In this document: positions 4,468-64,000 of the stretch, piece by piece
How the letters are laid out: each line of letters begins with the position of its first letter
Numbering within the stretch: the stretch's first letter is position 1
NCBI GenBank assembly: GCA_963626925.1
Contig: CAVFZO010000151.1
Coordinates: forward strand, 1,308-65,307
Length of the DNA: 64,000 bases
Direction of reading: 5' to 3'
Source of the DNA: Clostridium sp. AM49-4BH
GTDB taxonomy: Bacteria > Spirochaetota > Spirochaetia > Sphaerochaetales > Sphaerochaetaceae
Notes under the pieces: generated by a model
The model's database searches: none
Seen by the model: only the letters and a program-made list of their open reading frames with translations
Told to the model about the DNA's origin: nothing
Made by a program: the position numbers and the translations under genes

Positions 4468-5889
4468 ATGGAAATACTAATGGTAACAAGCGAGGCTGTT
4501 CCTTTCTCCAAATCGGGGGGACTTGCCGACGTTCTCGGTGCGCTCTCACCGGCGCTTTGTAAACTCGGACACAACGTAACTGTATTCATGCCGCTCTACT
4601 CCTTCATCGACAGGACGGGATTCAAAAAGACCCTTTCCTATCAGATACCGATGCTGGCCAGAAACGAGAAGGCTGAGGTATTTGAAAAGGAGGTCGACGG
4701 CGTGACGTATGCGGCCCTCGCCCACCCCTACTTCACACAGAGAAAGGGAATCTACGGCGACACGTCATTCACGCCGTACAGCGACAACTGTCCGCGATTC
4801 ATCGCATTCTCCAAGGCTGCCGCCCTCTACGTCCTTGCCCGCGGCCTCCATGTAGATATCGTGCACTGTCATGACTGGACGACGGGCTTCGTGATGCACT
4901 TCATGAAGTATTTCAAGGTACCCGGAAAGACAGTCTTCACAATCCACAACCTCGAGTACCAGGGAGTCTTCTCCCCACTCGATGCAGTCTCGTCGTCATC
5001 CGTCATCCCCGAGGAGGCTGAAAGGGACGGGAAGATCAACATGATGGCGCTTGCCCTCAGAACGGCTGATAAAATAACGACGGTATCACCGACGTATGCC
5101 GGGGAGATTCTCACGCAGCAGTACGGTGTGGGACTCGAGGATATTCTGAAGCAGAGGGAGAACGACACGGAGGGCATAATCAACGGAATCGACGAAAAGG
5201 AATGGAATCCGGAAAGTGACCCCCTCATCCCCGCCCGGTTCTCGAAGGAGAACATGAAGGGCAAGGAGGAATGCCGCAAAGAGGCGAGGCGTCTCTTCGG
5301 CCTCGAGGAGAGGGACGATATTCCGCTTGTTGCGCTCATCAGCAGGCTCGCCTCCCAGAAGGGCTTCGACGAACTCCTTTTAGAAGGAGAAGAATGTGCA
5401 CTCGAGCGCATCCTCAAAACAGGGCAGTGCCAGGTCGCACTCATAGGCACCGGTGACAGCAGATATATATCGAAGCTGAGTTCGCTTATGATGAAGTATG
5501 ACAATCTCTCGGTCAAGATTGTCTTCTCGAAGGAGCTTTCGCACATCCTCGAGGCTGGAGCAGACTTCTTCCTCATGCCCTCGTCTTACGAGCCCTGCGG
5601 CCTCAACCAGATGTACTCGCTCACCTACGGCACAATCCCGGTCGTCCATGCCACGGGCGGCCTGAAAGATACCGTACGCGATATAGAGAACGGGGACGGG
5701 AACGGAATCTCGTTTTTGTCCCTCACTCCCGACGAGATAGTCTCGGCCGTGGAGAGAGCGGAGGCTCTCTACAGCGACAGAGAAGAGTTCGAGAGAGTGA
5801 GAAAGAGGGGTATGAACGAAGACTTCTCATGGCGCACATCGGCCGGAAAGTACGAGAAACTCTACCTCGAACTCCTCAGAAAGGCATAA
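4468..5889 (+). CDS. glgA: glycogen synthase (ADP-glucose type)
   Basis: N-terminal MEILMVTSEAVPFSKSGGLADV motif, 473 aa, adjacent to glgC. Confidence 0.9.
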   Translation: MEILMVTSEAVPFSKSGGLADVLGALSPALCKLGHNVTVFMPLYSFIDRTGFKKTLSYQIPMLARNEKAEVFEKEVDGVTYAALAHPYFTQRKGIYGDTSFTPYSDNCPRFIAFSKAAALYVLARGLHVDIVHCHDWTTGFVMHFMKYFKVPGKTVFTIHNLEYQGVFSPLDAVSSSSVIPEEAERDGKINMMALALRTADKITTVSPTYAGEILTQQYGVGLEDILKQRENDTEGIINGIDEKEWNPESDPLIPARFSKENMKGKEECRKEARRLFGLEERDDIPLVALISRLASQKGFDELLLEGEECALERILKTGQCQVALIGTGDSRYISKLSSLMMKYDNLSVKIVFSKELSHILEAGADFFLMPSSYEPCGLNQMYSLTYGTIPVVHATGGLKDTVRDIENGDGNGISFLSLTPDEIVSAVERAEALYSDREEFERVRKRGMNEDFSWRTSAGKYEKLYLELLRKA

Positions 5890-13366: not shown

Positions 13367-13432
13367 GACAAAAGTTTAAACCTTCAGCGTGTTTTTGTCT
13401 TGAAGATTTACCTCTCTTCCTGTAAATTCTAC

Positions 13433-13507
13433 CTGTCTAGGGGTGGCGTAATGCCTGAGAGATACCCTCGAACCTGATCCGGACAATGCCGGCGTAGGGA
13501 ACGACAG
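13433..13507 (+). promoter_or_regulatory. TPP (THI-box) riboswitch
   Basis: P1 helix CTGTC...GACAG enclosing GGGGTGGCGTAATGCCTGAGAGATACCCTCGAACCTGATCCGGACAATGCCGGCGTAGGGAA. This matches the conserved CUGAGA and ACCUGAUCNGGAUAAUGCCNGCG cores and lies 55 nt upstream of a thiamine-type binding protein. Confidence 0.9.
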
Positions 13508-13561
13508 CCTATTTCTTTATCAATTCCCGTTAGACAGAAAACAAATCAAGGAGGCTTTTCA

Positions 13562-14566
13562 ATGAAAAAGCTCATTTCTGTCGCACTTGCACTCTTATGC
13601 GTGCTCTCCCTTTTCAGCCAGCCTGTAAAAGAGGAGTCTGATGAAAACGTAAGAACTCTTACAGTCTATGCCTATGACACCTTCTGCGGTGAATGGGGAA
13701 GCGAAGGTGCTGTAATCCCCGCATTCGAGGAAAAGACAGGCATAAGCGTCAACGTCGTATCATGCGGAACGACATCGGAGATGATCAACCGTCTTCTCAT
13801 GGAGGGTGATAACACCCCCTGCGATGTCATTCTCGGAGTTTCCGACGACAAGGCCGAAGCTGTCTACTCCGCACTCGAAGCCTATGACACCCCGCTTCTG
13901 GACGGAATCGACAAGAGGCTCGTCTTCGACAGTGAAAAGAGACTTCTTCCATTCGACTGGGGGACGTTCGCCTTCGTCTTCGACACGGAAAGCACGATCG
14001 AGGAACCATCGTCGCTGTGGGATCTCACGAAGGAAGAATACAAGGGGAAGGTCATTCTCATCGACCCGAGAACAAGCAGCGTAGGACTGGGACTCCTTCT
14101 CTGGACATACAATGCACTCGGAGACGAATATCTCGAGTGGTGGAGGAAGATGGAGGAGAATGCACTCGTAATCGCCTCGGGATGGTCATCGGCCTACGGA
14201 CTCTTCACAGAGGGAGAGGCACCGATTGTGATCAGCTACACGACAAGCCCGGTCTATCATGTGATAAACGAGAACACGACACGCTACAAGGCCCTGATCT
14301 TCGAGGAGGGACACGAGGCGACCATCGAAGGAATCGGAATCGTGAAGGGAACGAAGCACAGAGCGGAGGCCGAGGAGTTCGTATCATACATACTCACGGA
14401 TGCGCAGGAGACGCTCGCAGTCACGAACTCGATGTACCCCGTGCTCTCCACAACAGAGCTTCCCGATGCCTATGAGTATGCGCCCGTTCCGGAAAAGTTC
14501 TATGCTTCCGGCCGACTTGACACATCTTCTCTTCTTGCATCATGGTCCGCTTTGATAGCACAATAG
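13562..14566 (+). CDS. thiB: thiamine/TPP ABC transporter substrate-binding protein
   Basis: Signal peptide, 334-aa type-2 periplasmic binding protein, immediately downstream of the TPP riboswitch and upstream of a duplicated permease and ATPase. Confidence 0.75.
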   Translation: MKKLISVALALLCVLSLFSQPVKEESDENVRTLTVYAYDTFCGEWGSEGAVIPAFEEKTGISVNVVSCGTTSEMINRLLMEGDNTPCDVILGVSDDKAEAVYSALEAYDTPLLDGIDKRLVFDSEKRLLPFDWGTFAFVFDTESTIEEPSSLWDLTKEEYKGKVILIDPRTSSVGLGLLLWTYNALGDEYLEWWRKMEENALVIASGWSSAYGLFTEGEAPIVISYTTSPVYHVINENTTRYKALIFEEGHEATIEGIGIVKGTKHRAEAEEFVSYILTDAQETLAVTNSMYPVLSTTELPDAYEYAPVPEKFYASGRLDTSSLLASWSALIAQ

Positions 14567-14573
14567 TCCTGTT

Positions 14574-16190
14574 ATGAAAAAGGAACGGAAAAACAGATTC
14601 TATCTGCTCATGTCGCTGCCGGCTCTGGCGGTGACAGTTGTGATATTCGTTTTTCCGCTTCTGTCTGTATCACTCAGAATCGGCGGAGGAACGGAGGTCT
14701 TCATCGATACGCTGAAGAGCCCCTACACATGGTCGCTCTTCCTCTTTACATCAATACAGGCTCTGCTGAGCGCCCTCATTTCGACGGCGCTTGCACTGCC
14801 CTTTGCCTCGTTCTTCTCGTCTCACACATTCCCCGGCCGCCGTCTCACACTCACGCTTGCCGACACGGCTTTCGTACTGCCATCCGTCATCGTCGTCCTG
14901 GGCTTCGTAATCTGGTACGGCAACAACGGAATACTCAACAGCCTGCTTTCAAAGATTTCAGGAGGCAGAATAAAGCTCAGCATCCTGTATTCATACAAGG
15001 CCGTCATCCTTGCGCACGTCTATCTCAACTTCCCCCTCGCCTTCTCCCTCATAACGGAAGGAATGACGGCTGCGGGAGAGAGAGAGGAGAGAGCGGCAGA
15101 GTTTCTCGGCGCCTCGCACATCCGCATATTCTTCACCGTCACATTCATGAAAATCAAGGGCACGATATATCAGACGCTGCTCCTTGTATTTCTTTTCTGC
15201 TTTCCCTCGTTTCTCATCGTGATGACACTCGGAGGAAGTCCGAAGTACTACACGGTTGAAGCGGAGATCTACCGCCGCGCATATATGGACGGAAACCTGG
15301 CCTCCTCTTCCTCCCTCGCCCTCGTATCTTTTGCTGTGATGGCTCTGATCATACTTCTCACAGGAGCCGGAAGGAGGGAAAAAAAGATCCGGAGAGAGAG
15401 ACGCACCCTGAAGCCTCTGAAGGGGGGAAGGAAAGCCTTCGCCTTCCTTCTCGAGCTTATTGTCGCCCTTTTCATGCTTCCGCCCCTCTTATCAATAGTA
15501 TACAGGGCCTTCTTCAACAGAGACGGCACATTCACGCTCAAAGCATGGGAGAATCTATTCGCCGGCTCGGACAGGAGCGCCCTCAATGCCGTCGCCACCT
15601 CAGTCTGCATTGCTCTCCTTGCATCCCTTGCCGCCACGGCGATGGCTACGGCGCTCTCGGTATCGGCAGTGAGAAGGAAGAGGAAGGCCCTCACAGTTCT
15701 CTCGTCGCTTCCGCTTGCGACGGGGTCCGTCACGCTCGGTCTCGGATTCTCGTACCTTTCGTCACTCTTCTACCCGAGCGGAAAGACCGGCGCCGTCATT
15801 CTCACACTTCTTGCTCACATAACGGTCGTCCTCCCCTTTGCGATCCGGTCAATCCTCCCCGGAGCGGCAAAACTCAGCGACAGGCTTCTCTATTCCTCGC
15901 TCTCCCTCTCCCCCTCGTACTGGAGGAACTACAGAAAGGTCGAAGTGCCCCTTTTAAGGGGATACAGAAGGAAGGCCTTTGCCTTCGCCTTCGCCCTCTC
16001 GCTGGGAGAGACCAACGCCACGATGGCGCTCGGGGCGGGCAACGTAACAACGCTGCCTCTGCTCATTTACAAGAAAATACAGCACTACGACTATCAGGGG
16101 GCATCTGCGCTGTGCCTCATGCTCCTTCTCGCAAGTCTCATAATATTCGCATTCTCTGAGAAAGGAGGAGAGAGAAGTGTCATATCTTGA
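14574..16190 (+). CDS. thiP: thiamine ABC transporter permease (duplicated, ThiP-like)
   Basis: 538-aa polytopic protein with two permease halves, as in ThiP/FbpB. It sits in the riboswitch-controlled operon. Confidence 0.7.
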   Translation: MKKERKNRFYLLMSLPALAVTVVIFVFPLLSVSLRIGGGTEVFIDTLKSPYTWSLFLFTSIQALLSALISTALALPFASFFSSHTFPGRRLTLTLADTAFVLPSVIVVLGFVIWYGNNGILNSLLSKISGGRIKLSILYSYKAVILAHVYLNFPLAFSLITEGMTAAGEREERAAEFLGASHIRIFFTVTFMKIKGTIYQTLLLVFLFCFPSFLIVMTLGGSPKYYTVEAEIYRRAYMDGNLASSSSLALVSFAVMALIILLTGAGRREKKIRRERRTLKPLKGGRKAFAFLLELIVALFMLPPLLSIVYRAFFNRDGTFTLKAWENLFAGSDRSALNAVATSVCIALLASLAATAMATALSVSAVRRKRKALTVLSSLPLATGSVTLGLGFSYLSSLFYPSGKTGAVILTLLAHITVVLPFAIRSILPGAAKLSDRLLYSSLSLSPSYWRNYRKVEVPLLRGYRRKAFAFAFALSLGETNATMALGAGNVTTLPLLIYKKIQHYDYQGASALCLMLLLASLIIFAFSEKGGERSVIS

Positions 16191-17157
16191 AGCGAAGGAC
16201 ATAAAAAAGAAATACAGGGATTTCAACCTCGAGTGCTCACTTTCTGTAGAAAAGGGTGAGCTTGTCTGCCTCCTCGGCCCCTCGGGAAGCGGAAAGTCGA
16301 CGCTGCTCTCGCTCCTCAGCGGCATTGAAACGCCGGACGGAGGATCTGTTCTCCTTGACGGAGAAGATATTACCTCCCTTCCCGTCGGGAAGAGAGGAAT
16401 CGGCTTTGTCTTCCAGGACTACGCCCTCTTCAACTCCATGAATACCGAAAAGAACATCCAGTACGGGATGAAGACGAAGAAGAGAGACGAGAAGCGGCAG
16501 CTGACGAAAAGACTTTTAGAGAACGTCGGCCTTGAGGGCGCAGAGAAGAGGAAGGTCGAGACACTCTCGGGAGGAGAAGCTCAGAGAGTCGCCCTCGTGA
16601 GAGCCCTTGCGGCAGAGCCGCAGATACTCTTTCTCGACGAACCGCTCTCGTCCCTCGACGCCCCGCTGAGAAAGAAGCTCAGAGGCACAATAAGAACAAT
16701 ACACGACAGACTCGGAGTAACGATGCTCTACGTCACGCACGACAGAGAGGAGGCGTTCGCCATAGCCGACAGAATCATCATAATGAAGGACGGCCATATA
16801 GAGAGCACAGGCACACCCGAAGAGGTGTACAAGCATCCGAAAACTCTCTTCTCTGCATACTTCACCGGAGACGGAACATCCCTCTCTTCATCCCTTCTCT
16901 ACGGAGAAGGAGCCTCCGGAACCCTCTTCTTCCGTCCCGAAGCCGTCACGATAAGCGAAGAACCCCTCAACACGGGAGTGTATCCGAGCCATGTGATCTT
17001 CAATGAATGCAGTGTCGAATCAATCGAATACAAGGGAGAAGGTTACATGATAGGACTGAGTTTTCACGGAAACCCGTTAATCGCATTCTCACCACTGAAA
17101 CCCAAAAAGAAAGAAGTATCTTTAATGCTTCTGAAAGACAGCCTCATAAAACTTTGA
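16177..17157 (+). CDS. thiQ: ABC transporter ATP-binding protein (ThiQ/PotA-like)
   Basis: Walker A GPSGSGKST, signature LSGGEAQRVAL, Walker B LFLDEPLS. It overlaps the permease by 14 nt. The last ~100 nt are noticeably more AT-rich. Confidence 0.8.
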   Translation: MSYLEAKDIKKKYRDFNLECSLSVEKGELVCLLGPSGSGKSTLLSLLSGIETPDGGSVLLDGEDITSLPVGKRGIGFVFQDYALFNSMNTEKNIQYGMKTKKRDEKRQLTKRLLENVGLEGAEKRKVETLSGGEAQRVALVRALAAEPQILFLDEPLSSLDAPLRKKLRGTIRTIHDRLGVTMLYVTHDREEAFAIADRIIIMKDGHIESTGTPEEVYKHPKTLFSAYFTGDGTSLSSSLLYGEGASGTLFFRPEAVTISEEPLNTGVYPSHVIFNECSVESIEYKGEGYMIGLSFHGNPLIAFSPLKPKKKEVSLMLLKDSLIKL

Positions 17158-20200: not shown

Positions 20201-22090
20201 TCAGCTGAGTTCGCTCTTTCCTGTATAGAGCGAGTAGTAGACGCCCTTCTGTGCGATGAGATCGTCGTGGTCTCCCCGCTCGATGATCCTTCCCTTGTCG
20301 AGGACCATGATGGCATTGCTGTTGCGCACGGTGCTGAGACGGTGTGCTATAACGAATACCGTCCTGTTCTCCATGAGCTTGTCCATGCCCGACTGCACGA
20401 GAGCTTCGGTGTGGGTGTCGATTGATGAGGTTGCCTCGTCCATGATGAGGATCGGCGGGTTACCGACTGCCGCACGTGCAATCGAAAGAAGCTGACGCTG
20501 TCCCTGAGAGAGGTTCTCGCCGTTGTTGGTGATGACAGTATCATAACCCTGAGGCATCATCATGATGAAGTCGTGGGCGTTTGCAAGCTTTGCAGCCTTC
20601 TCCACTTCCTCATCGCTGGCATCCAGTCTGCCGTAGCGGATGTTGTCCCTGATGGTTCCCGTAAAGAGTGACGTGTCCTGAAGTACCATAGCCATGCTGC
20701 GCCTCAGGTCGGCAAGCTTCATGTCCATGATGTTGATGCCGTCGATCGTTATCTCTCCCTTCTCGATGTTGTAGAAACGGTTGAGGAGGTTCGTGATCGT
20801 GGTCTTACCTGCCCCAGTATGGCCGACGAAGGCGATCTTCTGGCCCGGCTTTGCATAGAGTGTTATATCGTGGAGAACGATCTTACCGGGAACATAGGCG
20901 AAGTCTACATCCTTCATGACGACGCTTCCCTTGAACGGAATGAGCTCACCGTCCCTCTTCCATGCCCACTTGCCTGTGCTCTTCTCCACTTCATGCATAT
21001 CGCCCTCGTGCCCCGAGACTCTGACAAGCGTTACCTTTCCCTCGTCGCTCTCGCTCTTCTCATCCAGCAGCGCGAAAACACGCTCTGCTCCCGCAAGTGC
21101 CACGAGCACCGTGTTCGCCTGCTGTGATATCTGGCTGATATTGTTCGTGAACGACTTACTAAGCTGCAGGAATGCGGCAAGACCTCCGATTGTATAGACA
21201 AGGGGGTTTCTGATGACTGCCAGTGCCCCGACAAGTACGAGAACAACATACTGGAGGTGTCCGAGGTTGTTATTGAGCGGCCCCATGCTTCCGGCCCAGC
21301 TGTTTGCCGATGCCATGGAGGAGTTGAGCTTCTCGTTGAGGAGCTCGAAGCCCTTCCGGCTCTCGTCCTCGTGAGTGAAGACCTTGATGACCCTCTGACC
21401 GTTCATCATCTCCTCGATATAGCCGTTGACAGAAGCAAGGTCTTCCTGCTGCGAAGTATAGAACTTCCCGCTCTTTCCTCCGACCTTCCCCGTCACACCG
21501 AGCGTGATGAAGATGAAGACAACGACGAAAGCTGTGAGAATGAGGCTGTTTCTGCACATCGAAGTGAATACCATGACGATGGTGATCGACGCCGTCAGAA
21601 GCTGCACAAGGCCGTTGGAAATGAACTGGTTGATCGTATCGGTATCGTTGGAGAAGACGGACATGATGGTTCCTCTCGCATTCCGGTCGAAGTACGAGAG
21701 AGGAAGACTCTCGAGACGCGAGAACATCTTTGTCCTCATCTTGTAGATCGCCCCCTGTGATATCCCGACCATGATCCATGATGAGATGAACGATGTGATT
21801 ATCGAGACAAGGACAACGAGTGCGAACTTTCCAAGTGCCTTCAGAGCAGGGACAAATGAAGGATTCTCCACACCCTTGAGCGGTATTACGATGTCATCGA
21901 TATACTCACCGATGAAGGTCGCCGAATATGTCGTTGCGAGGGCTGACAGGATGATGCAGCAGAGGATGACGAGAATGAGAAGCGCCTTGCCTTCGAAGAC
22001 GAACTTCATCAGCCTCATAAAGGAACGGCCCGGATTCTTGGCTTTCGGCATTGCACGCATTGCTGCTCTTGATGGTCTTTTCTCCGCCAT
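20201..22090 (-). CDS. ABC transporter permease/ATP-binding protein (exporter half, heterodimer partner B)
   Basis: Six-TM domain plus Walker A GHTGAGKTT, signature LSQGQRQLLSIARA and Walker B ILIMDEATS. I chose the start at M31 (ATG 22090), 1 nt after the upstream stop. Confidence 0.85.
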   Translation of the reverse strand: MAEKRPSRAAMRAMPKAKNPGRSFMRLMKFVFEGKALLILVILCCIILSALATTYSATFIGEYIDDIVIPLKGVENPSFVPALKALGKFALVVLVSIITSFISSWIMVGISQGAIYKMRTKMFSRLESLPLSYFDRNARGTIMSVFSNDTDTINQFISNGLVQLLTASITIVMVFTSMCRNSLILTAFVVVFIFITLGVTGKVGGKSGKFYTSQQEDLASVNGYIEEMMNGQRVIKVFTHEDESRKGFELLNEKLNSSMASANSWAGSMGPLNNNLGHLQYVVLVLVGALAVIRNPLVYTIGGLAAFLQLSKSFTNNISQISQQANTVLVALAGAERVFALLDEKSESDEGKVTLVRVSGHEGDMHEVEKSTGKWAWKRDGELIPFKGSVVMKDVDFAYVPGKIVLHDITLYAKPGQKIAFVGHTGAGKTTITNLLNRFYNIEKGEITIDGINIMDMKLADLRRSMAMVLQDTSLFTGTIRDNIRYGRLDASDEEVEKAAKLANAHDFIMMMPQGYDTVITNNGENLSQGQRQLLSIARAAVGNPPILIMDEATSSIDTHTEALVQSGMDKLMENRTVFVIAHRLSTVRNSNAIMVLDKGRIIERGDHDDLIAQKGVYYSLYTGKSELS

Positions 22091-22091
22091 A

Positions 22092-23822
22092 TTATGCCTC
22101 CTTCCTTGTCTGTGTCTCATACAGTTTTCTGTAGCCCGCATTACGAGCGAGAAGCTCTTCGTGCGTTCCGATATCTTCAATCATTCCGTTGTTCATTATG
22201 ATGATCTTGTCGGCATCCTCGATTGAGGAAACACGCTGCGAGATGATTATCTTCGTCATGCCCGAGACCTCGCTGTGCAGCGCCTCCCTGATTGCCCTGT
22301 CGGTCGCAGTGTCGACAGCCGATGTCGAGTCGTCCATGATGAGGATCTTCGGCTTCTTGAGGAGAGCACGCGCGATGCAGAGTCTCTGTCTCTGGCCTCC
22401 GGAGAAGTTGGTTCCGCCCTGTTCGACAACAGAATCGAAGCCCTTCTCCTTCTCCATGATGAAGGAATAGGCACATGCCACCTTCGCAGCCTTCTCCATC
22501 TCCTCCTCCGTGGCATTCCTGTCACCCCATTCGAGGTTGCTCCTGATAGTGCCGGAGAAGAGTGTGTTCTTCTGCAGTACGACGGATACACTGTCTCTGA
22601 GAGCCTTGAGGTTGTAATCCCTGACATCCCTTCCGCCGACCATGACCGCACCCTTCGTTGTGTCGTAGAGACGGGCGATGAGAGAGACAAGCGTCGTCTT
22701 TCCGCTTCCGGTCATTCCGAGCACACCAACCATCTCACCGCTCTTTATCTCGAGATTGACGTCCTTGAGTACGGACGAACCCTCCTTGTAGCCGAAGGAT
22801 ACATGATCGAATACGACAGAGCCGTCAGAAACTTCCTTCACTCCGTTCTCGTTGCTGTCCATCGTGGGCTGGTATTGAAGCACCTCGCTCACTCTCTCCA
22901 TGCTCGGCTTGCTCATCGAGTACATTATGATGATCATGCCCGTCATCATGAGAGACGAGAGAATCTGGGTCGAATATGTGAAGATGCTCATCAGCGCCCC
23001 TGTGTCCATAGTGCCTCTGTTGACGAGTTTTGCACCGAAATAGGAGATTGCTATCATACAGCCGTAGGATACGAACATGACAAGCGGGTTCATGAGAGCC
23101 ATCATCTGCTCCGCCTTCTTGAAGTTGTCGCGGATGTAGGCAGCACTCTCATCGAACTTCTCCTCCTCCCTCTTCTCTCTTACGAAGGCCTTTACCGTCC
23201 TTATGCCGGAGAGGTTCTCTCCGACAACCTGGTTGAAGCGGTCGAAGCCTTTGAAGGCCCTGGTGAAATAGCCGTGGGTCTTGTGTGTCATGATCCATAC
23301 ACCTGCAGCCATGACCGGGATGACCACGACGAAGATAAGAGAGAGCGTCCCTCCGTTTCTGAGGCACATTACAGCTGCGAAGATGAGCATCATAGGGGAA
23401 CGTACGAACATCCTGATGGACATGCTGAAGAGCATCTGGATACGCTGCACGTCTGTTGTGAGACGTGTAATGAGACTCGACGGGCTGAAGCGGTCGATAT
23501 CGGAGAACGAGAGCTCCTGAACCTTGTCGTAGAGGTCGTGTCTCAGGTTTGTCGCAAAACCCGAAGCCGCAACGGAGCCGAAACGGGCTCCCAGTACTCC
23601 GAATGTCAGCGACAAAAGCGCCGAAAGGACGAGAAGAGATGAGAGGACGAGAATCGTCCTCATGTCCATATTGGCGATGCCGACGTCGATGATCTGAGCC
23701 ATTATGGCGGGGATAAGCACTTCCATAAGTACTTCCAGCACCATGAAGACAGGAGTAATCAGAGCCTTCTTCTTATATTCCCTGACACGTGAAAAAAGTT
23801 CTTTAATCAATTTTGAAAACAC
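22092..23822 (-). CDS. ABC transporter permease/ATP-binding protein (exporter half, heterodimer partner A)
   Basis: TM domain plus GMTGSGKTT, FSGGQRQRLCIARA and ILIMDDSTS. There is no N-terminal C39 peptidase domain. Confidence 0.85.
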   Translation of the reverse strand: MFSKLIKELFSRVREYKKKALITPVFMVLEVLMEVLIPAIMAQIIDVGIANMDMRTILVLSSLLVLSALLSLTFGVLGARFGSVAASGFATNLRHDLYDKVQELSFSDIDRFSPSSLITRLTTDVQRIQMLFSMSIRMFVRSPMMLIFAAVMCLRNGGTLSLIFVVVIPVMAAGVWIMTHKTHGYFTRAFKGFDRFNQVVGENLSGIRTVKAFVREKREEEKFDESAAYIRDNFKKAEQMMALMNPLVMFVSYGCMIAISYFGAKLVNRGTMDTGALMSIFTYSTQILSSLMMTGMIIIMYSMSKPSMERVSEVLQYQPTMDSNENGVKEVSDGSVVFDHVSFGYKEGSSVLKDVNLEIKSGEMVGVLGMTGSGKTTLVSLIARLYDTTKGAVMVGGRDVRDYNLKALRDSVSVVLQKNTLFSGTIRSNLEWGDRNATEEEMEKAAKVACAYSFIMEKEKGFDSVVEQGGTNFSGGQRQRLCIARALLKKPKILIMDDSTSAVDTATDRAIREALHSEVSGMTKIIISQRVSSIEDADKIIIMNNGMIEDIGTHEELLARNAGYRKLYETQTRKEA

Positions 23823-60570: not shown

Positions 60571-60654
60571 GGCGTGATGGCGGAATTGGTAGACGCAGTA
60601 GACTCAAAATCTGCCGGAGGCAACTCCTTGTGGGTTCGATTCCCACTCGCGCTA
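60571..60654 (+). tRNA. tRNA-Leu (anticodon CAA)
   Basis: Hand-folded: acceptor GGCGTGA/TCGCGCT (two G-U pairs), D arm GCG-GAATTGGTAGA-CGC, anticodon stem GTAGA/TCTGC with loop CTCAAAA, a long variable arm, and T arm GTGGG-TTCGATT-CCCAC. Confidence 0.85.
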
Positions 60655-60903: not shown

Positions 60904-60914
60904 GAGGGAGATTG

Positions 60915-61604
60915 ATGATGCATCCTGTAGTTTATGTCTATTCCGATGAATCCGGGGTGTTCGATAAATTCCACAAAGATTACTTCGTCTATGCCGGCAT
61001 AGCAGTAATCGGACAGGACAATGCATCAATACTCACAAGGTCTTATCTGAATGCTGAAAAAAATCTTCGTAAATCATGCAAATATAAAGAACTACCGGAG
61101 CTGAAGGCATCAAAGCTCGAGAATGATGCCAAAAGAAAACTGTATAGAATAATCAAGGACTGCTACAAATTCATCGTTGTTGTAAGATTGAAAAAATTGC
61201 AGGATGAACGATTCTGCAACCGACTTTCACAACAGCGGTACCTGGACTATGCGTATAAGAGGGGACTTAAAAATCTTCTTCGGAATATGGCCAAAAACGG
61301 AGAACTAGATCTTTCTCAAGAGTTTGAAATCAGATGCTACATAGACGAGCACAACATTGCGACTAACGGCAGATACGACTTAGCCAACTCCATTTATACA
61401 GAATTCAAGAGAGGGTTGTATCTTCCGAACTTTGAAATAAAACCAATCGCAACTGGGCTATGGGACGTATCAACTACCTATTGCAACTCTGAAACAAACA
61501 CGCTTGTCAGAGCTTCAGATATACTGGCAAACAGAGCTTTATTTGAAGCCAAGAATGGATCAACACTACAAGATAGCCATACCTCGGTACTTACACTTCC
61601 GTAG
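60915..61604 (+). CDS. DUF3800-like protein
   Basis: N-terminal VYVYSDESGVFD motif (the Y.DESG pattern I associate with DUF3800). ~229 aa, AT-rich, SD GAGGGAG just upstream. Confidence 0.55.
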   Translation: MMHPVVYVYSDESGVFDKFHKDYFVYAGIAVIGQDNASILTRSYLNAEKNLRKSCKYKELPELKASKLENDAKRKLYRIIKDCYKFIVVVRLKKLQDERFCNRLSQQRYLDYAYKRGLKNLLRNMAKNGELDLSQEFEIRCYIDEHNIATNGRYDLANSIYTEFKRGLYLPNFEIKPIATGLWDVSTTYCNSETNTLVRASDILANRALFEAKNGSTLQDSHTSVLTLP

Positions 61605-61890: not shown

Positions 61891-62199
61891 TTAAACAGTA
61901 CTGTAACTATAAGGTTTAATTGAAGAAATCTCACTTTTAAGACGCGTCTTCAGCTCTCTTATATCAAGATCGTTCTGCAGGTTAAGAAAATACCTGTCTG
62001 AGACGCCGAAATAGCGTGCAAGTCTTATGGAAGTATCGGGGGTAATCTTACGTCCGCTGTTAAGGATAGCCTGAATCCTGGACACAGGAACATGTATATC
62101 ATGTGCAAGTTTATAGGATGAGAGATTCATCGGAACCATGAACTCTTCTTTCAAAATCTCACCCATTGTCGGTGCTTCAATGTAATCGTTCATACCCAT
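61891..62199 (-). CDS. higA: HigA-family antitoxin (XRE HTH)
   Basis: GEILKEEFMVPMNLSSYKLAHDIHVPVSRIQAILNSGRKITPDTSIRLARYFG is the HigA/VapI pattern. I chose the ATG at 62199 behind GAGGAG. Confidence 0.8.
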   Translation of the reverse strand: MGMNDYIEAPTMGEILKEEFMVPMNLSSYKLAHDIHVPVSRIQAILNSGRKITPDTSIRLARYFGVSDRYFLNLQNDLDIRELKTRLKSEISSIKPYSYSTV

Positions 62200-62210
62200 C
62201 TCCTCTTCTG

Positions 62211-62345
62211 TCAATGATAATCAACAATCTCAACACAGTGAAAATCATTCTTCTCTTCAAGAGTAAAACCTACTCTCCACATCATTTATGCATTTGAAGA
62301 TTCAAGCATTTTCATGCTTTCTCCCTTCAATTTTATCCTCTTCTG
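62211..62345 (-). pseudogene. decayed HigB (RelE/ParE-fold killer) remnant
   Basis: Hand translation of the minus strand gives ...KLKGESMKMLESSNA*MMWRVGFTLEEKNDFHCVEIVDYH*. The C-terminal WR..F....D....V.IVDYH is the HigB signature, but there is an internal TAA at 62286-62288 and no N-terminal half. Confidence 0.6.
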
Positions 62346-62371: not shown

Positions 62372-62584
62372 TTACCGCATTCTCACAACCTTGATATCAC
62401 AATCGAGAGTTCTGACAACCTTCATGAGGGTGTCGAGCTGAGGTGAGGCTTTCTTACTCTCCAAGTGTGCTATGCCAGACTGCGTCAGAGAACAGGAAGA
62501 CGCAAGCTCGGTTTGAGTCATTCCCTTTTTATGTCTCTCTTCAATGATGGCATCTATTACACGGGAGGAAGCCTCAGTTGTCAT
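62372..62584 (-). CDS. XRE-family HTH transcriptional regulator (70 aa)
   Basis: KKGMTQTELASSCSLTQSGIAHLESKKASPQLDTLMKVV. Its start overlaps the stop of the upstream precursor-peptide gene by 11 nt. Confidence 0.8.
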   Translation of the reverse strand: MTTEASSRVIDAIIEERHKKGMTQTELASSCSLTQSGIAHLESKKASPQLDTLMKVVRTLDCDIKVVRMR

Positions 62585-62930
62585 ATCTTTGAGGACAGTA
62601 GCAAAGAAACAAACCTTCTCTTTTTAAGTATTTACAGTGCATGCAAAATCTTTTGCGTCCATTGGGATCGTCAGGTTCAAAGTATGCACAATGGTTAAAG
62701 TCTGTAACAACTGGTCTCTTGTCTTTGTAGATTGTCCCACATTTCCCGCCACCGGACACATTGTCCAGTTCATCATCTGTAAGCTCACCTTCCTTGGCAT
62801 TGAGCTTAGCAAAATATGTCTTTGCTTCTTCATCTGTCAGCTCGAAGCCGTTTTCCCTTGCAATAGCAACAAGTTCTTCAGCTGTTTTTGCATTCTTTGC
62901 TTTTTCAAGTATTTTTTCGTTAAGTTCCAT
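62574..62930 (-). CDS. Nif11-type leader / double-glycine precursor peptide with a Cys-rich 56-aa core (copy 1)
   Basis: The leader MELNEKILEKAKNAKTAEELVAIARENGFELTDEEAKTYFAKLN...ELTDDELDNVSGG resembles Nif11/N11P leaders. The core is KCGTIYKDKRPVVTDFNHCAYFEPDDPNGRKRFCMHCKYLKREGLFLCYCPQRYDN (6 Cys). SD AAGGAAG lies upstream. Confidence 0.75.
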   Translation of the reverse strand: MELNEKILEKAKNAKTAEELVAIARENGFELTDEEAKTYFAKLNAKEGELTDDELDNVSGGGKCGTIYKDKRPVVTDFNHCAYFEPDDPNGRKRFCMHCKYLKREGLFLCYCPQRYDN

Positions 62931-62971
62931 ATCTTTACTTCCTTATTTTGAATCTGCTCAGAATGTCAGAT

Positions 62972-63328
62972 TCAGTTCTCGTATCTCTCGGGGCAGTCGC
63001 AAACATACATCCCGTCATACCCCTTGTACTTGCAAGTACCACAAATCTCCCAGTCGACTCCCTCTTTCCAAACTTCAAAGTAATCACAGCAGTTGAAAAA
63101 GGTAATAACCGGTTTCCCGTTTTTGTAGGTTGTTCCGCATTTTTTGCCACCGGCAACATTGTCGAGTTCATCATCAGCAAGTTCGCCACCTTTTGAATTG
63201 AGCTGAGCAAAATAGTTTTTTGCTTCTTCCTCTGTAAGCTCGAAGCCGTTTTCCTTTGCCAAAGAGTAAAGTTCTTCAGCTGTTTTTGCTTCTTTTGCTT
63301 TTTCAATCAGTTTCTCATTAAGTTTCAT
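62972..63328 (-). CDS. Nif11-type leader / double-glycine precursor peptide with a Cys-rich 56-aa core (copy 2)
   Basis: The leader is 46/62 identical to copy 1 and ends in ...ELADDELDNVAGG. The core is KCGTTYKNGKPVITFFNCCDYFEVWKEGVDWEICGTCKYKGYDGMYVCDCPERYEN (7 Cys, 6 aligned with copy 1). The SD context is identical. Confidence 0.75.
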   Translation of the reverse strand: MKLNEKLIEKAKEAKTAEELYSLAKENGFELTEEEAKNYFAQLNSKGGELADDELDNVAGGKKCGTTYKNGKPVITFFNCCDYFEVWKEGVDWEICGTCKYKGYDGMYVCDCPERYEN

Positions 63329-63529
63329 ATTCTTACTTCCTTATTTAAGATTTTACTTTATATATACGTGCGGATTTGGATTTTGTTAGGAGGAAAAAAA
63401 TCATTTTTATACACATCTTCCATCAGAAACAATTCTGATTCGCCACTCTGTCCGACACATCTACCTCTATTCCCCCCTAACCTTCGCTAAGTTATACTGT
63501 ATCAAAAACTAATGGTGAACATAAGAAAG

Positions 63530-63564: not shown

Positions 63565-64000
63565 TCAGCATGGGTTGTCGATTATCGGGATACCGGCCTT
63601 TGAGGAGAACATCTTGCTGACCTCCAGGGGGATATCGAAAAGGGTGCAGTCAAGGTGGCCGTTGAACCATTCCTGGTAGAGTGTGGTCAGCCCGCCGGCA
63701 AAGTAGCATGCCCTGATTCTGAACGCCTTGGAGGATCTCACATCCTGGGGGATTGACTGGTCCTTCTCAAGATAGTCCACAAAGAGATTCATCAGCTTTT
63801 CAAGAAAGAGATTGCTCCCGGGAGTCTTGATCAGCGTCCTGTATGTCTCTATGTCCTCATTGAGGATGATACTCACCTGCAAAAGAAGAGGAGATGGGTT
63901 AGAAAAGAAGTTATCAGCCTTGAAATCCTTGAGAATGGCCATGAGCTTGTCTATTACCTCATTCTCTATCTCCTCCGAGAGATCTCTGAGGCAGGAGTAA
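63565..64000 (-). CDS. TetR/AcrR-family regulator, C-terminal part (partial; continues beyond the window)
   Basis: The reading frame stays open upstream of the first Met to the window edge. The C-terminal helical domain (ACYFAGGLTTLYQEWFNGHL) resembles DhaS-like TetR C-terminal domains. The N-terminal HTH is not in the window. Confidence 0.45.
   Translation of the reverse strand, partial: YSCLRDLSEEIENEVIDKLMAILKDFKADNFFSNPSPLLLQVSIILNEDIETYRTLIKTPGSNLFLEKLMNLFVDYLEKDQSIPQDVRSSKAFRIRACYFAGGLTTLYQEWFNGHLDCTLFDIPLEVSKMFSSKAGIPIIDNPC

Follow-up and report, generated by a model that had tools for sequence, protein, structure and literature searches.

Two Nif11-leader precursor genes of a gut spirochaete as a probable satellite of a dispersed radical SAM peptide system

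How might a pair of peptide precursor genes be put to use when nothing that could modify or export their products lies near them? The question is posed by two adjacent genes, here called preA and preB, on contig CAVFZO010000151.1 of GenBank assembly GCA_963626925.1 (Clostridium sp. AM49-4BH), in a stretch of 64,000 nucleotides that was analysed as a whole and is referred to below as the window. Each gene encodes a protein of 118 amino acids with a Nif11-type leader and a cysteine-rich core. We consider it probable that they are functional precursors of a family of modified mini-proteins, and that their locus belongs, as a satellite, to a multi-locus system organised around a radical S-adenosylmethionine (rSAM) enzyme. 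The reading rests on the conservation of the pair and its relatives, on a promoter common to distant members of the family, and on the enzyme and exporter genes that adjoin related arrays.

The precursor pair and its core family

The two genes are oriented head to tail on the minus strand. Their features are as follows, gene coordinates including the stop codon.

62972–63328 (−): preA, 118-aa Nif11-leader precursor (open reading frame (ORF) call and leader hidden Markov models)
62574–62930 (−): preB, 118-aa Nif11-leader precursor (ORF call and leader hidden Markov models)
63146–63328 (−): preA leader, residues 1–61, C-terminal end ELADDELDNVAGG (translation, TIGR03798, AlphaFold2 (AF2) model)
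62975–63145 (−): preA predicted core, residues 62–118, 57 aa, 7 Cys
62577–62747 (−): preB predicted core, residues 62–118, 57 aa, 6 Cys (translation)
63044–63073 (−): preA hypervariable loop VWKEGVDWEI, residues 86–95
62646–62675 (−): preB hypervariable loop PDDPNGRKRF

The original prediction, made from the letters alone, described two neighbouring 118-aa genes on the minus strand whose Nif11-type leaders end in a double-glycine (GG) cleavage motif, and the ORF coordinates and profile searches bear this out. The leaders score 42.3 (preA) and 41.7 bits (preB) with TIGR03798 (curated cut-off 32.3) and 24.6 and 28.7 bits with Pfam Nif11 (PF07862; curated cut-off 23.8), and end in NVAGG and NVSGG, respectively, at residues 57–61, so that the GG is formed by residues 60–61. 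The earlier identity counts were reproduced exactly: 46 of 62 residues agree in the leader and 26 of 56 in the core, and the two ten-residue loops have no residue in common. At the nucleotide level the two genes are 81% identical over the leader and 56% over the core. The core length had been given as 56 aa; counted from residue 62, as the position of the GG implies, it is 57 aa. Six cysteines align between the two proteins (residues 64, 81, 96, 99, 110 and 112, or core positions 2, 19, 34, 37, 48 and 50), and preA alone has a further one at residue 80. As had been stated, the cores are not rich in Ser and Thr (5 Thr in preA, 2 Thr in preB, no Ser in either) and belong to no family that could be named: no Pfam or NCBIfam model matched them. 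Genes for LanM, LanB or LanC, as expected for lanthipeptides, were found neither in the window nor among the recurrent neighbour clusters of 78 related loci.

These loci come from a genome scan that took one genome per species and gave at least 262 encoding stretches, of which 78 loci were kept; a protein search returned 224 homologues. ORFs were called in all kept loci, cited below by our L numbers, and clustered by all-against-all BLASTP. The precursor cluster has 271 members, a lower bound on the number of relatives, with 1–15 per array. In an alignment of 82 homologues both glycines (G60, G61) and Cys64 are invariant, and the nearly invariant columns fall almost entirely within the leader. 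Sixteen close relatives with cores of the '...RY.N' type share K1, C2, G3, T4, Y6, P11, N17, C19, C34, C37, C48, R53 and N56. Thus, five cysteines are invariant among them, whereas conservation does not extend to the second Cys of the CxC; the positions of the six aligned cysteines, with their CxxC and CxC, had been predicted correctly, but the CxC is no family trait. The stretch between C19 and C34 varies within the subfamily both in length (~10–20 residues) and in sequence, and in clostridial relatives it holds large inserts with extra CxxC pairs. The proposed pattern of a conserved leader, a Cys scaffold and a hypervariable loop is therefore supported beyond the pair on which it was first noticed.

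The core was not encountered apart from such leaders. When a profile of the core alone was run against 1.84 billion representative proteins, 22 hits reached E≤1e-3, and, with the exception of one weak repeat protein and of N-terminally truncated ORFs, these are small proteins in which a GG leader precedes a C-terminal core. Because of this arrangement, the core is never a free-standing or fused intracellular domain. Two leader flavours precede it, and both end in GG. Of 228 cores that are 40 aa or longer, 226 have a Cys within three residues of the GG, among them non-Cys-rich cores with no more than two Cys, which makes this residue a candidate for a conserved modification site.

Variation among close copies points in the same direction. 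The exact preA protein is present on seven NCBI contigs, and the 90%-identity clusters of preA and preB hold 11 and 12 member sequences, respectively. Across some 20 alleles of the two genes on dozens of contigs, the GG and all Cys are kept, the only exception being a preB allele with a frameshift (P0136). Changes in the preA core are almost absent, and in intact preB alleles core changes are restricted to the loop (PDDPNGRKRF, NDNPNGRQRF, NEDPNGHQRF). To judge from these alleles, preA and preB look maintained rather than decayed.

Array members are not confined to Cys-rich cores. Non-Cys-rich, beta-rich cores of ~70 aa (e.g., CGGGY..GRP.P.F.VGE.VLYI...) occur in L033 (12547–12939), L039, L042, L051, L055 and L069; they keep the Cys right behind the GG and have few others. 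Hence one leader type carries unrelated core folds. Other small peptides with GG leaders are found inside clusters at L046 7398–7583, L068 4717–5028 and L069 7594–7887, one of them with a short CxxC...CxxC core and one with an Asn-rich repeat core. No publication on the family was found in the full-text literature searched, an absence that is no proof of undescribed status.

A common promoter and the machinery beside related arrays

A promoter of the extracytoplasmic function (ECF) type, CTAACAAAATCCAAATCCGCACGTATATA, lies 30 nt 5' of the preA start. The control elements of the locus, and the gene that follows preB, are these.

63364–63389 (−): ECF-type promoter of preA, CTAACAAAATCCAAATCCGCACGTAT, AAC-N16-CGT, sole motif match in 64 kb
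63336–63342 (−): preA Shine-Dalgarno (SD) sequence AAGGAAG, in the context ATAAGGAAGTAAGAATATG (sequence)
62938–62944 (−): preB SD sequence AAGGAAG (sequence)
62372–62584 (−): HTH_3 gene, 70 aa, starting with an ATG inside preB (11-nt overlap)

The promoter elements are CTAACAAAA-N12-CGTATATA; the pattern CTAACAR-N14-MGTAT, of which 0.02 matches would be expected in the 64 kb, is found there once. The arrangement AAC-N16-CGT is classic for promoters read by ECF sigma factors such as Bacillus sigma-W. The same motif stands just upstream of precursor or rSAM operons in L008 (three copies, one of which heads an operon of four precursors and the rSAM gene), L009, L010, L015, L017, L018, L021, L022, L025, L032, L061, L080, L086–L090 and L093–L101. 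All matches in the fetched loci share the strand of the precursors and lie upstream of an operon of precursor or rSAM genes. In the compact clusters (L093–L101) it directly follows the second gene of the exporter pair described below (ABC2) and precedes the precursor/rSAM genes; in these clusters the operon of peptide, sigma factor, STAS protein and ABC exporter is instead preceded by a promoter of sigma-70-like type (TTGACA/TATAAT). In L091 a peptide-sigma operon itself follows the motif. A second promoter-like motif, TATACCTTTTC-N13-CGTATAAA, is found before precursors in L013 (~5290–5370), L024 (~2620–2700) and L070, and may reflect a different sigma specificity.

The ribosome-binding context is likewise common to the family. 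The sequence ATAAGGAAGTAA(A)GA(A)TATG precedes both preA and preB, as had been reported, but its use as the mark of a recent tandem duplication did not survive, since it also precedes copies in L008, L009, L010, L018, L019, L021 and L022. We rejected a recent duplication on the grounds that the ATAAGGAAGTAAGA..ATG context precedes scattered copies on contigs with this SD and promoter, that the cores have diverged as far as given above, and that L001 has preA without preB.

The 41-nt spacer between preA and preB has no promoter motif, and the 70-aa HTH gene overlaps preB, so that the three genes probably form one transcript. A scan for terminators and sigma-70 promoters around the genes gave nothing above chance. 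Neither this HTH_3 gene (cluster size 1) nor a second one in the window recurs beside precursors in other lineages, and by its distribution the 70-aa gene is specific to the locus rather than a component of the family. Its product weakly resembles antitoxins of the HI1420/HipB type; no toxin partner is present.

Many related loci hold what the window lacks. An rSAM/SPASM protein of ~461–473 aa is encoded in 33 of 76 loci, and a pair of ABC exporter genes with a C39 peptidase (ABC1 and ABC2) adjoins the arrays in 42. ABC1 contains Peptidase_C39 and scores 949 bits with TIGR03796 (cut-off 853); ABC2 scores 739 bits with TIGR03797 (cut-off 709). Their homologues are named 'NHLP family bacteriocin export ABC transporter peptidase/permease/ATPase subunit' at NCBI. 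A membrane HlyD-like protein of 158 aa matches only the first 52 positions of TIGR03794. Thirty-one loci encode an ECF-type sigma-70 factor (sigma70-ECF model, 107.6 bits against 42.9), and a partner-switching module comprises a STAS protein, an RsbW-like kinase and a SpoIIE phosphatase, the last in 29 loci. Optional additions in some loci are a MatE::HATPase fusion, a methyltransferase, a GNAT protein and a GH3-family enzyme. Where at least 5 kb is available on both sides, 20 of 24 loci have the rSAM gene, the ABC genes or both; the remaining four are satellites like the window locus.

The rSAM gene is immediately downstream of arrays of the close subfamily in L008, L011, L013, L017, L023 and L024. 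All 33 orthologues, which are 45–87% identical, keep the CxxxCxxC motif and the SPASM cysteines, and the nearest solved structures are SkfB (E 1e-13) and PqqE. The exact 473-aa rSAM protein of L008 is encoded in GCA_963626865.1, GCA_963640795.1 and GCA_963612445.1, which are three of the six metagenome-assembled genomes (MAGs) that carry the preA locus. In these three its gene lies between sugar-metabolism genes, with two to four precursors upstream and two downstream.

Three further observations concern these clusters. A conserved ORF of 60–78 aa is found directly upstream of the sigma gene in L036, L043, L049, L091 (2877–3074) and L097 (1438–1638); one representative, to which no Pfam model matches, contains the leader-like segment ...DDDLSLVSAAG, and a role as anti-sigma factor or as processed signalling peptide is conceivable. 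The exporter of L025, on a contig binned as Sphaerochaetaceae, has a counterpart with 87% protein identity on a 262-kb contig labelled Eubacterium sp., which points either to a recent transfer of the cluster between phyla or to mis-binning of the L025 contig. Several close precursor contigs from the same samples were placed in bins of Alistipes, Bacteroides, Absicoccus and Eggerthellaceae, an assignment that has the look of binning noise.

Maturation in trans and its alternatives

In the scheme that we favour, the cluster sigma factor would transcribe preA-preB, probably together with the overlapping HTH gene; this step is suggested because the promoter has ECF-type architecture and the sigma factor matches the ECF model. 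The rSAM/SPASM enzyme would bind the leader in trans and install one or more cross-links, the likeliest being a thioether formed by the Cys at the second or third residue past the GG. The C39 domain would then cleave after the GG, and the ABC pair would export a product of ~6.5 kDa. The loop may be the diversified, target-facing part of this product, which would most likely be a bacteriocin-like competition factor; of all the steps, this last one is the least certain.

Systems of this kind, namely N11P systems for peptides made on ribosomes and modified after translation (RiPPs) with rSAM maturases, are already known. The literature and libraries covered by our limited search contain no description of the core family, of the rSAM subfamily or of the sigma-linked, dispersed organisation. 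A bolder version, which we put forward tentatively and as the less probable one, is that the family constitutes a new RiPP class common to gut Clostridia and spirochaetes, in which an unclassified rSAM/SPASM enzyme cross-links folded mini-proteins of 6–9 kDa via the cleavage-site Cys under the control of an ECF regulon. The conserved scaffold would in that case display a hypervariable, insertion-tolerant loop, and the arrays with their dispersed satellites would amount to a natural display library.

Several points weigh against maturation by the dispersed system. The 64 kb contain no maturase, exporter or sigma gene. When the window was searched by tblastn with the rSAM, ABC1, ABC2, sigma and accessory proteins of the family, only a generic ABC pair at 20201–23822 was recovered, for which the alignment starts past the C39 region of the query. 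The 20 largest window ORFs, scanned with Pfam, are ordinary genes (glycogen synthesis, transporters, glycosyltransferases, a two-component kinase), and the CxxxCxxC motif is absent from all window ORFs of at least 150 aa. The original prediction had likewise seen no maturase or C39 exporter here and had called the genes orphans; the term is apt within the window, but not for the family, which is served by an rSAM/SPASM enzyme of its own and by an NHLM-type exporter, with the identical rSAM in half of the MAGs concerned. In the three MAGs with this enzyme, no exporter lies within 10 kb of its gene, and neither the C39 exporter nor the sigma gene could be placed in the MAGs with the preA locus. 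This is the main gap in the argument; the four L025 ABC1 homologues that were looked up are in other assemblies or on unbinned metagenome contigs. MAG binning and possible chimeric assembly weaken arguments from the same genome altogether.

The enzyme itself raises a second group of reservations. It falls below the cut-off of every curated sactipeptide or ranthipeptide synthase model, its best maturase scores being 102.7 bits with WgkB (cut-off 650), 95.7 with StsB (625), 74.7 with PapB (340) and 58.7 with SkfB (300). Since its first ~95–100 residues have no Pfam hit at E≤0.1, a PqqD-like RiPP recognition element is unproven. The modification chemistry is inferred throughout, and function rests on analogy because literature on the family was not found. 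Moreover, the core as folded by AF2 could equally be held by Zn or by disulfides, with no rSAM chemistry involved.

This last point leads to the alternative that survives best, although we regard it as unlikely: that the products are unmodified double-glycine mini-proteins resembling class II bacteriocins, cleaved by C39 and exported, stabilised by disulfides or metal, while the rSAM serves only some members of the arrays. The AF2 model of full-length preA, built from 82 sequences, has three leader helices and a small beta-rich core, with mean pLDDT values (predicted local distance difference test) of 82–91 in blocks of 10 residues over residues 71–118, and this confident fold was reached with no cross-link information. 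(A core-only model from 16 sequences, with a pLDDT of 54, was too poor to be used.) A site of four Cys could be formed by C19, C34, C37 and C48, and 4 of the 24 fully flanked loci have the ABC pair with no rSAM within 10 kb. On the other hand, the rSAM gene directly downstream of six arrays of the same subfamily, together with the common promoter, ties the enzyme to precisely these cores, and the number of invariant Cys, five, is odd. Retention of the GG-adjacent Cys in otherwise Cys-poor cores argues for an enzymatic step close to the leader, and disulfides would have to form unassisted in strict gut anaerobes.

Decay is a poorer explanation still. Under it, preA and preB would be unexpressed remnants of an array, carried on a variable island that has no processing machinery, as the lack of a maturase in the window, the relatives that have no preB (L001) and the frameshifted allele P0136 could be taken to indicate. 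We think this improbable: both ORFs are intact, the GG and all Cys are invariant across the alleles described above, promoter and SD are intact and match those of active-looking clusters, and the rSAM gene is present on co-binned contigs.

The least credible alternative, already named in the original prediction as the finding that would count against it, is that of uncleaved intracellular fusions of a Nif11 domain to a zinc ribbon, for which speak one homologue auto-named 'ribosomal protein S27AE' (a zinc ribbon) and the extra CxxC pairs in the loop of clostridial relatives, and against which stand the invariant GG, the second leader flavour, again ending in GG, behind which the core also occurs, the C39 exporter genes beside 42 of 76 loci, and the lack of a zinc-ribbon match in Foldseek. 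The window cores have one CxxC plus single cysteines. A Foldseek search of the full-length model against the PDB gave no hit at E<1, its only matches being weak, calmodulin-like helical ones to the leader.

Genomic setting and comparison with known systems

The host of the locus is a gut Sphaerochaetaceae spirochaete. GlgC of the window has 90% identity with a 'Spirochaetales bacterium' protein, 85% with that of Candidatus Ornithospirochaeta avicola and 77–79% with many Sphaerochaeta and Sphaerochaetaceae proteins. The precursors lie in the last part of the window, which has the following further features.

60571–60654 (+): tRNA-Leu(CAA), inner boundary of the low-GC segment
60787–60907 (+): DUF3800-I RNA motif, island cargo (Rfam, 50.3 bits against a cut-off of 44.2)
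60912–61604 (+): DUF3800 gene, island cargo
61891–62214 (−): second HTH_3 gene, 107 aa, island cargo
63565–64000 (−): TetR-family regulator, C-terminal domain visible, gene running past the window end

From ~60.8 to 64.0 kb the window is about 99% identical, within a range of 95–100%, to contigs L085, L004 and L001, whose flanking genes are only 73–78% identical to it; for L085 the identity drops from the higher to the lower range between ~60.8 and 60.6 kb. The GC content of this segment is 0.42, against ~0.51 elsewhere. The segment is either a recently exchanged, tRNA-adjacent island or the product of a chimeric metagenome join of two syntenic relatives, and under either origin the precursors occupy a variable region.

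The assembly with L003 and L085 (GCA_963609145.1) breaks exactly between preA and preB, presumably because the leader sequence is repeated there; tandem precursors may thus be under-counted in MAGs built from short reads. The upstream neighbour of preA is the TetR gene. On six related MAG contigs (L001 1487–9764) this gene is divergent from an operon, beyond the end of the window, of a resistance-nodulation-division (RND) pump, a membrane-fusion protein, a protein of ~555 aa and an outer-membrane efflux protein. The operon was considered as part of the system and rejected, being confined to the species group (clusters 12–15) and never beside precursors elsewhere. In a diderm host the product would also have to cross the outer membrane, and the HlyD-like protein of the system is only 158 aa long. 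Elsewhere in the window, a thiamine pyrophosphate (TPP) riboswitch at 13429–13518 (+; 61.8 bits) lies upstream of an ABC solute-binding protein/permease operon (13562–17157).

If the favoured reading is right, preA and preB provide two ready substrates for a widespread, uncharacterised rSAM/SPASM peptide maturase of gut anaerobes. Orphan-looking precursors could then be assigned to a dispersed regulon via their common promoter, which would be of practical use as a rule in genome mining, since such satellites escape tools that require the enzyme within a few kb. Cores that are long, scaffolded and diversified in a loop would be out of the ordinary for RiPPs and an appealing basis for engineering, and the near-identical island in diverged genomes would suggest that precursor genes move between gut species.

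Among known systems, the QhpC/QhpD pair offers a precedent for size: there an rSAM/SPASM enzyme installs Cys thioethers in a protein-sized polypeptide with a removable leader. Unlike the family described here, QhpC is an enzyme subunit and not a diversified secreted family, and the sequence context is unrelated. The exporter genes agree with the NHLP/N11P bacteriocin export system (TIGR03796, TIGR03797, TIGR03794), reportedly described by Haft in 2010, in that ABC1 and ABC2 of related clusters score above the equivalog cut-offs; the differences are the shortness of the HlyD-like component and the want of export genes in the window.

An rSAM/SPASM gene beside Cys-containing precursors, as in 33 of the 76 related loci but not in the window, is also the arrangement of sactipeptides and ranthipeptides (SkfB/SKF, AlbA/subtilosin, ruminococcin C, CteB, PapB, SCIFF). 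SkfB is the nearest solved homologue of the enzyme, and the StsB and PapB models are matched below threshold. Unlike those peptides, the precursors here have a Nif11 leader and cores two to four times longer, and their enzyme reaches the cut-off of no synthase model.

The closest parallel in organisation is with the prochlorosins (ProcA/ProcM) of marine picocyanobacteria. There, too, many precursors lie far from a single modifying enzyme that serves many substrates. Both systems have a Nif11-type GG leader and many precursor genes per genome, with conserved leaders and highly diverse cores (on prochlorosins, see PMC10783134). They differ in that the enzyme here is an rSAM/SPASM protein and not LanM, and the hosts are gut anaerobes; the cores are 55–85 aa long and Cys-rich, not Ser/Thr-rich, with a conserved scaffold and one variable loop; and a dedicated ECF-type sigma factor is present with its partner-switching module.

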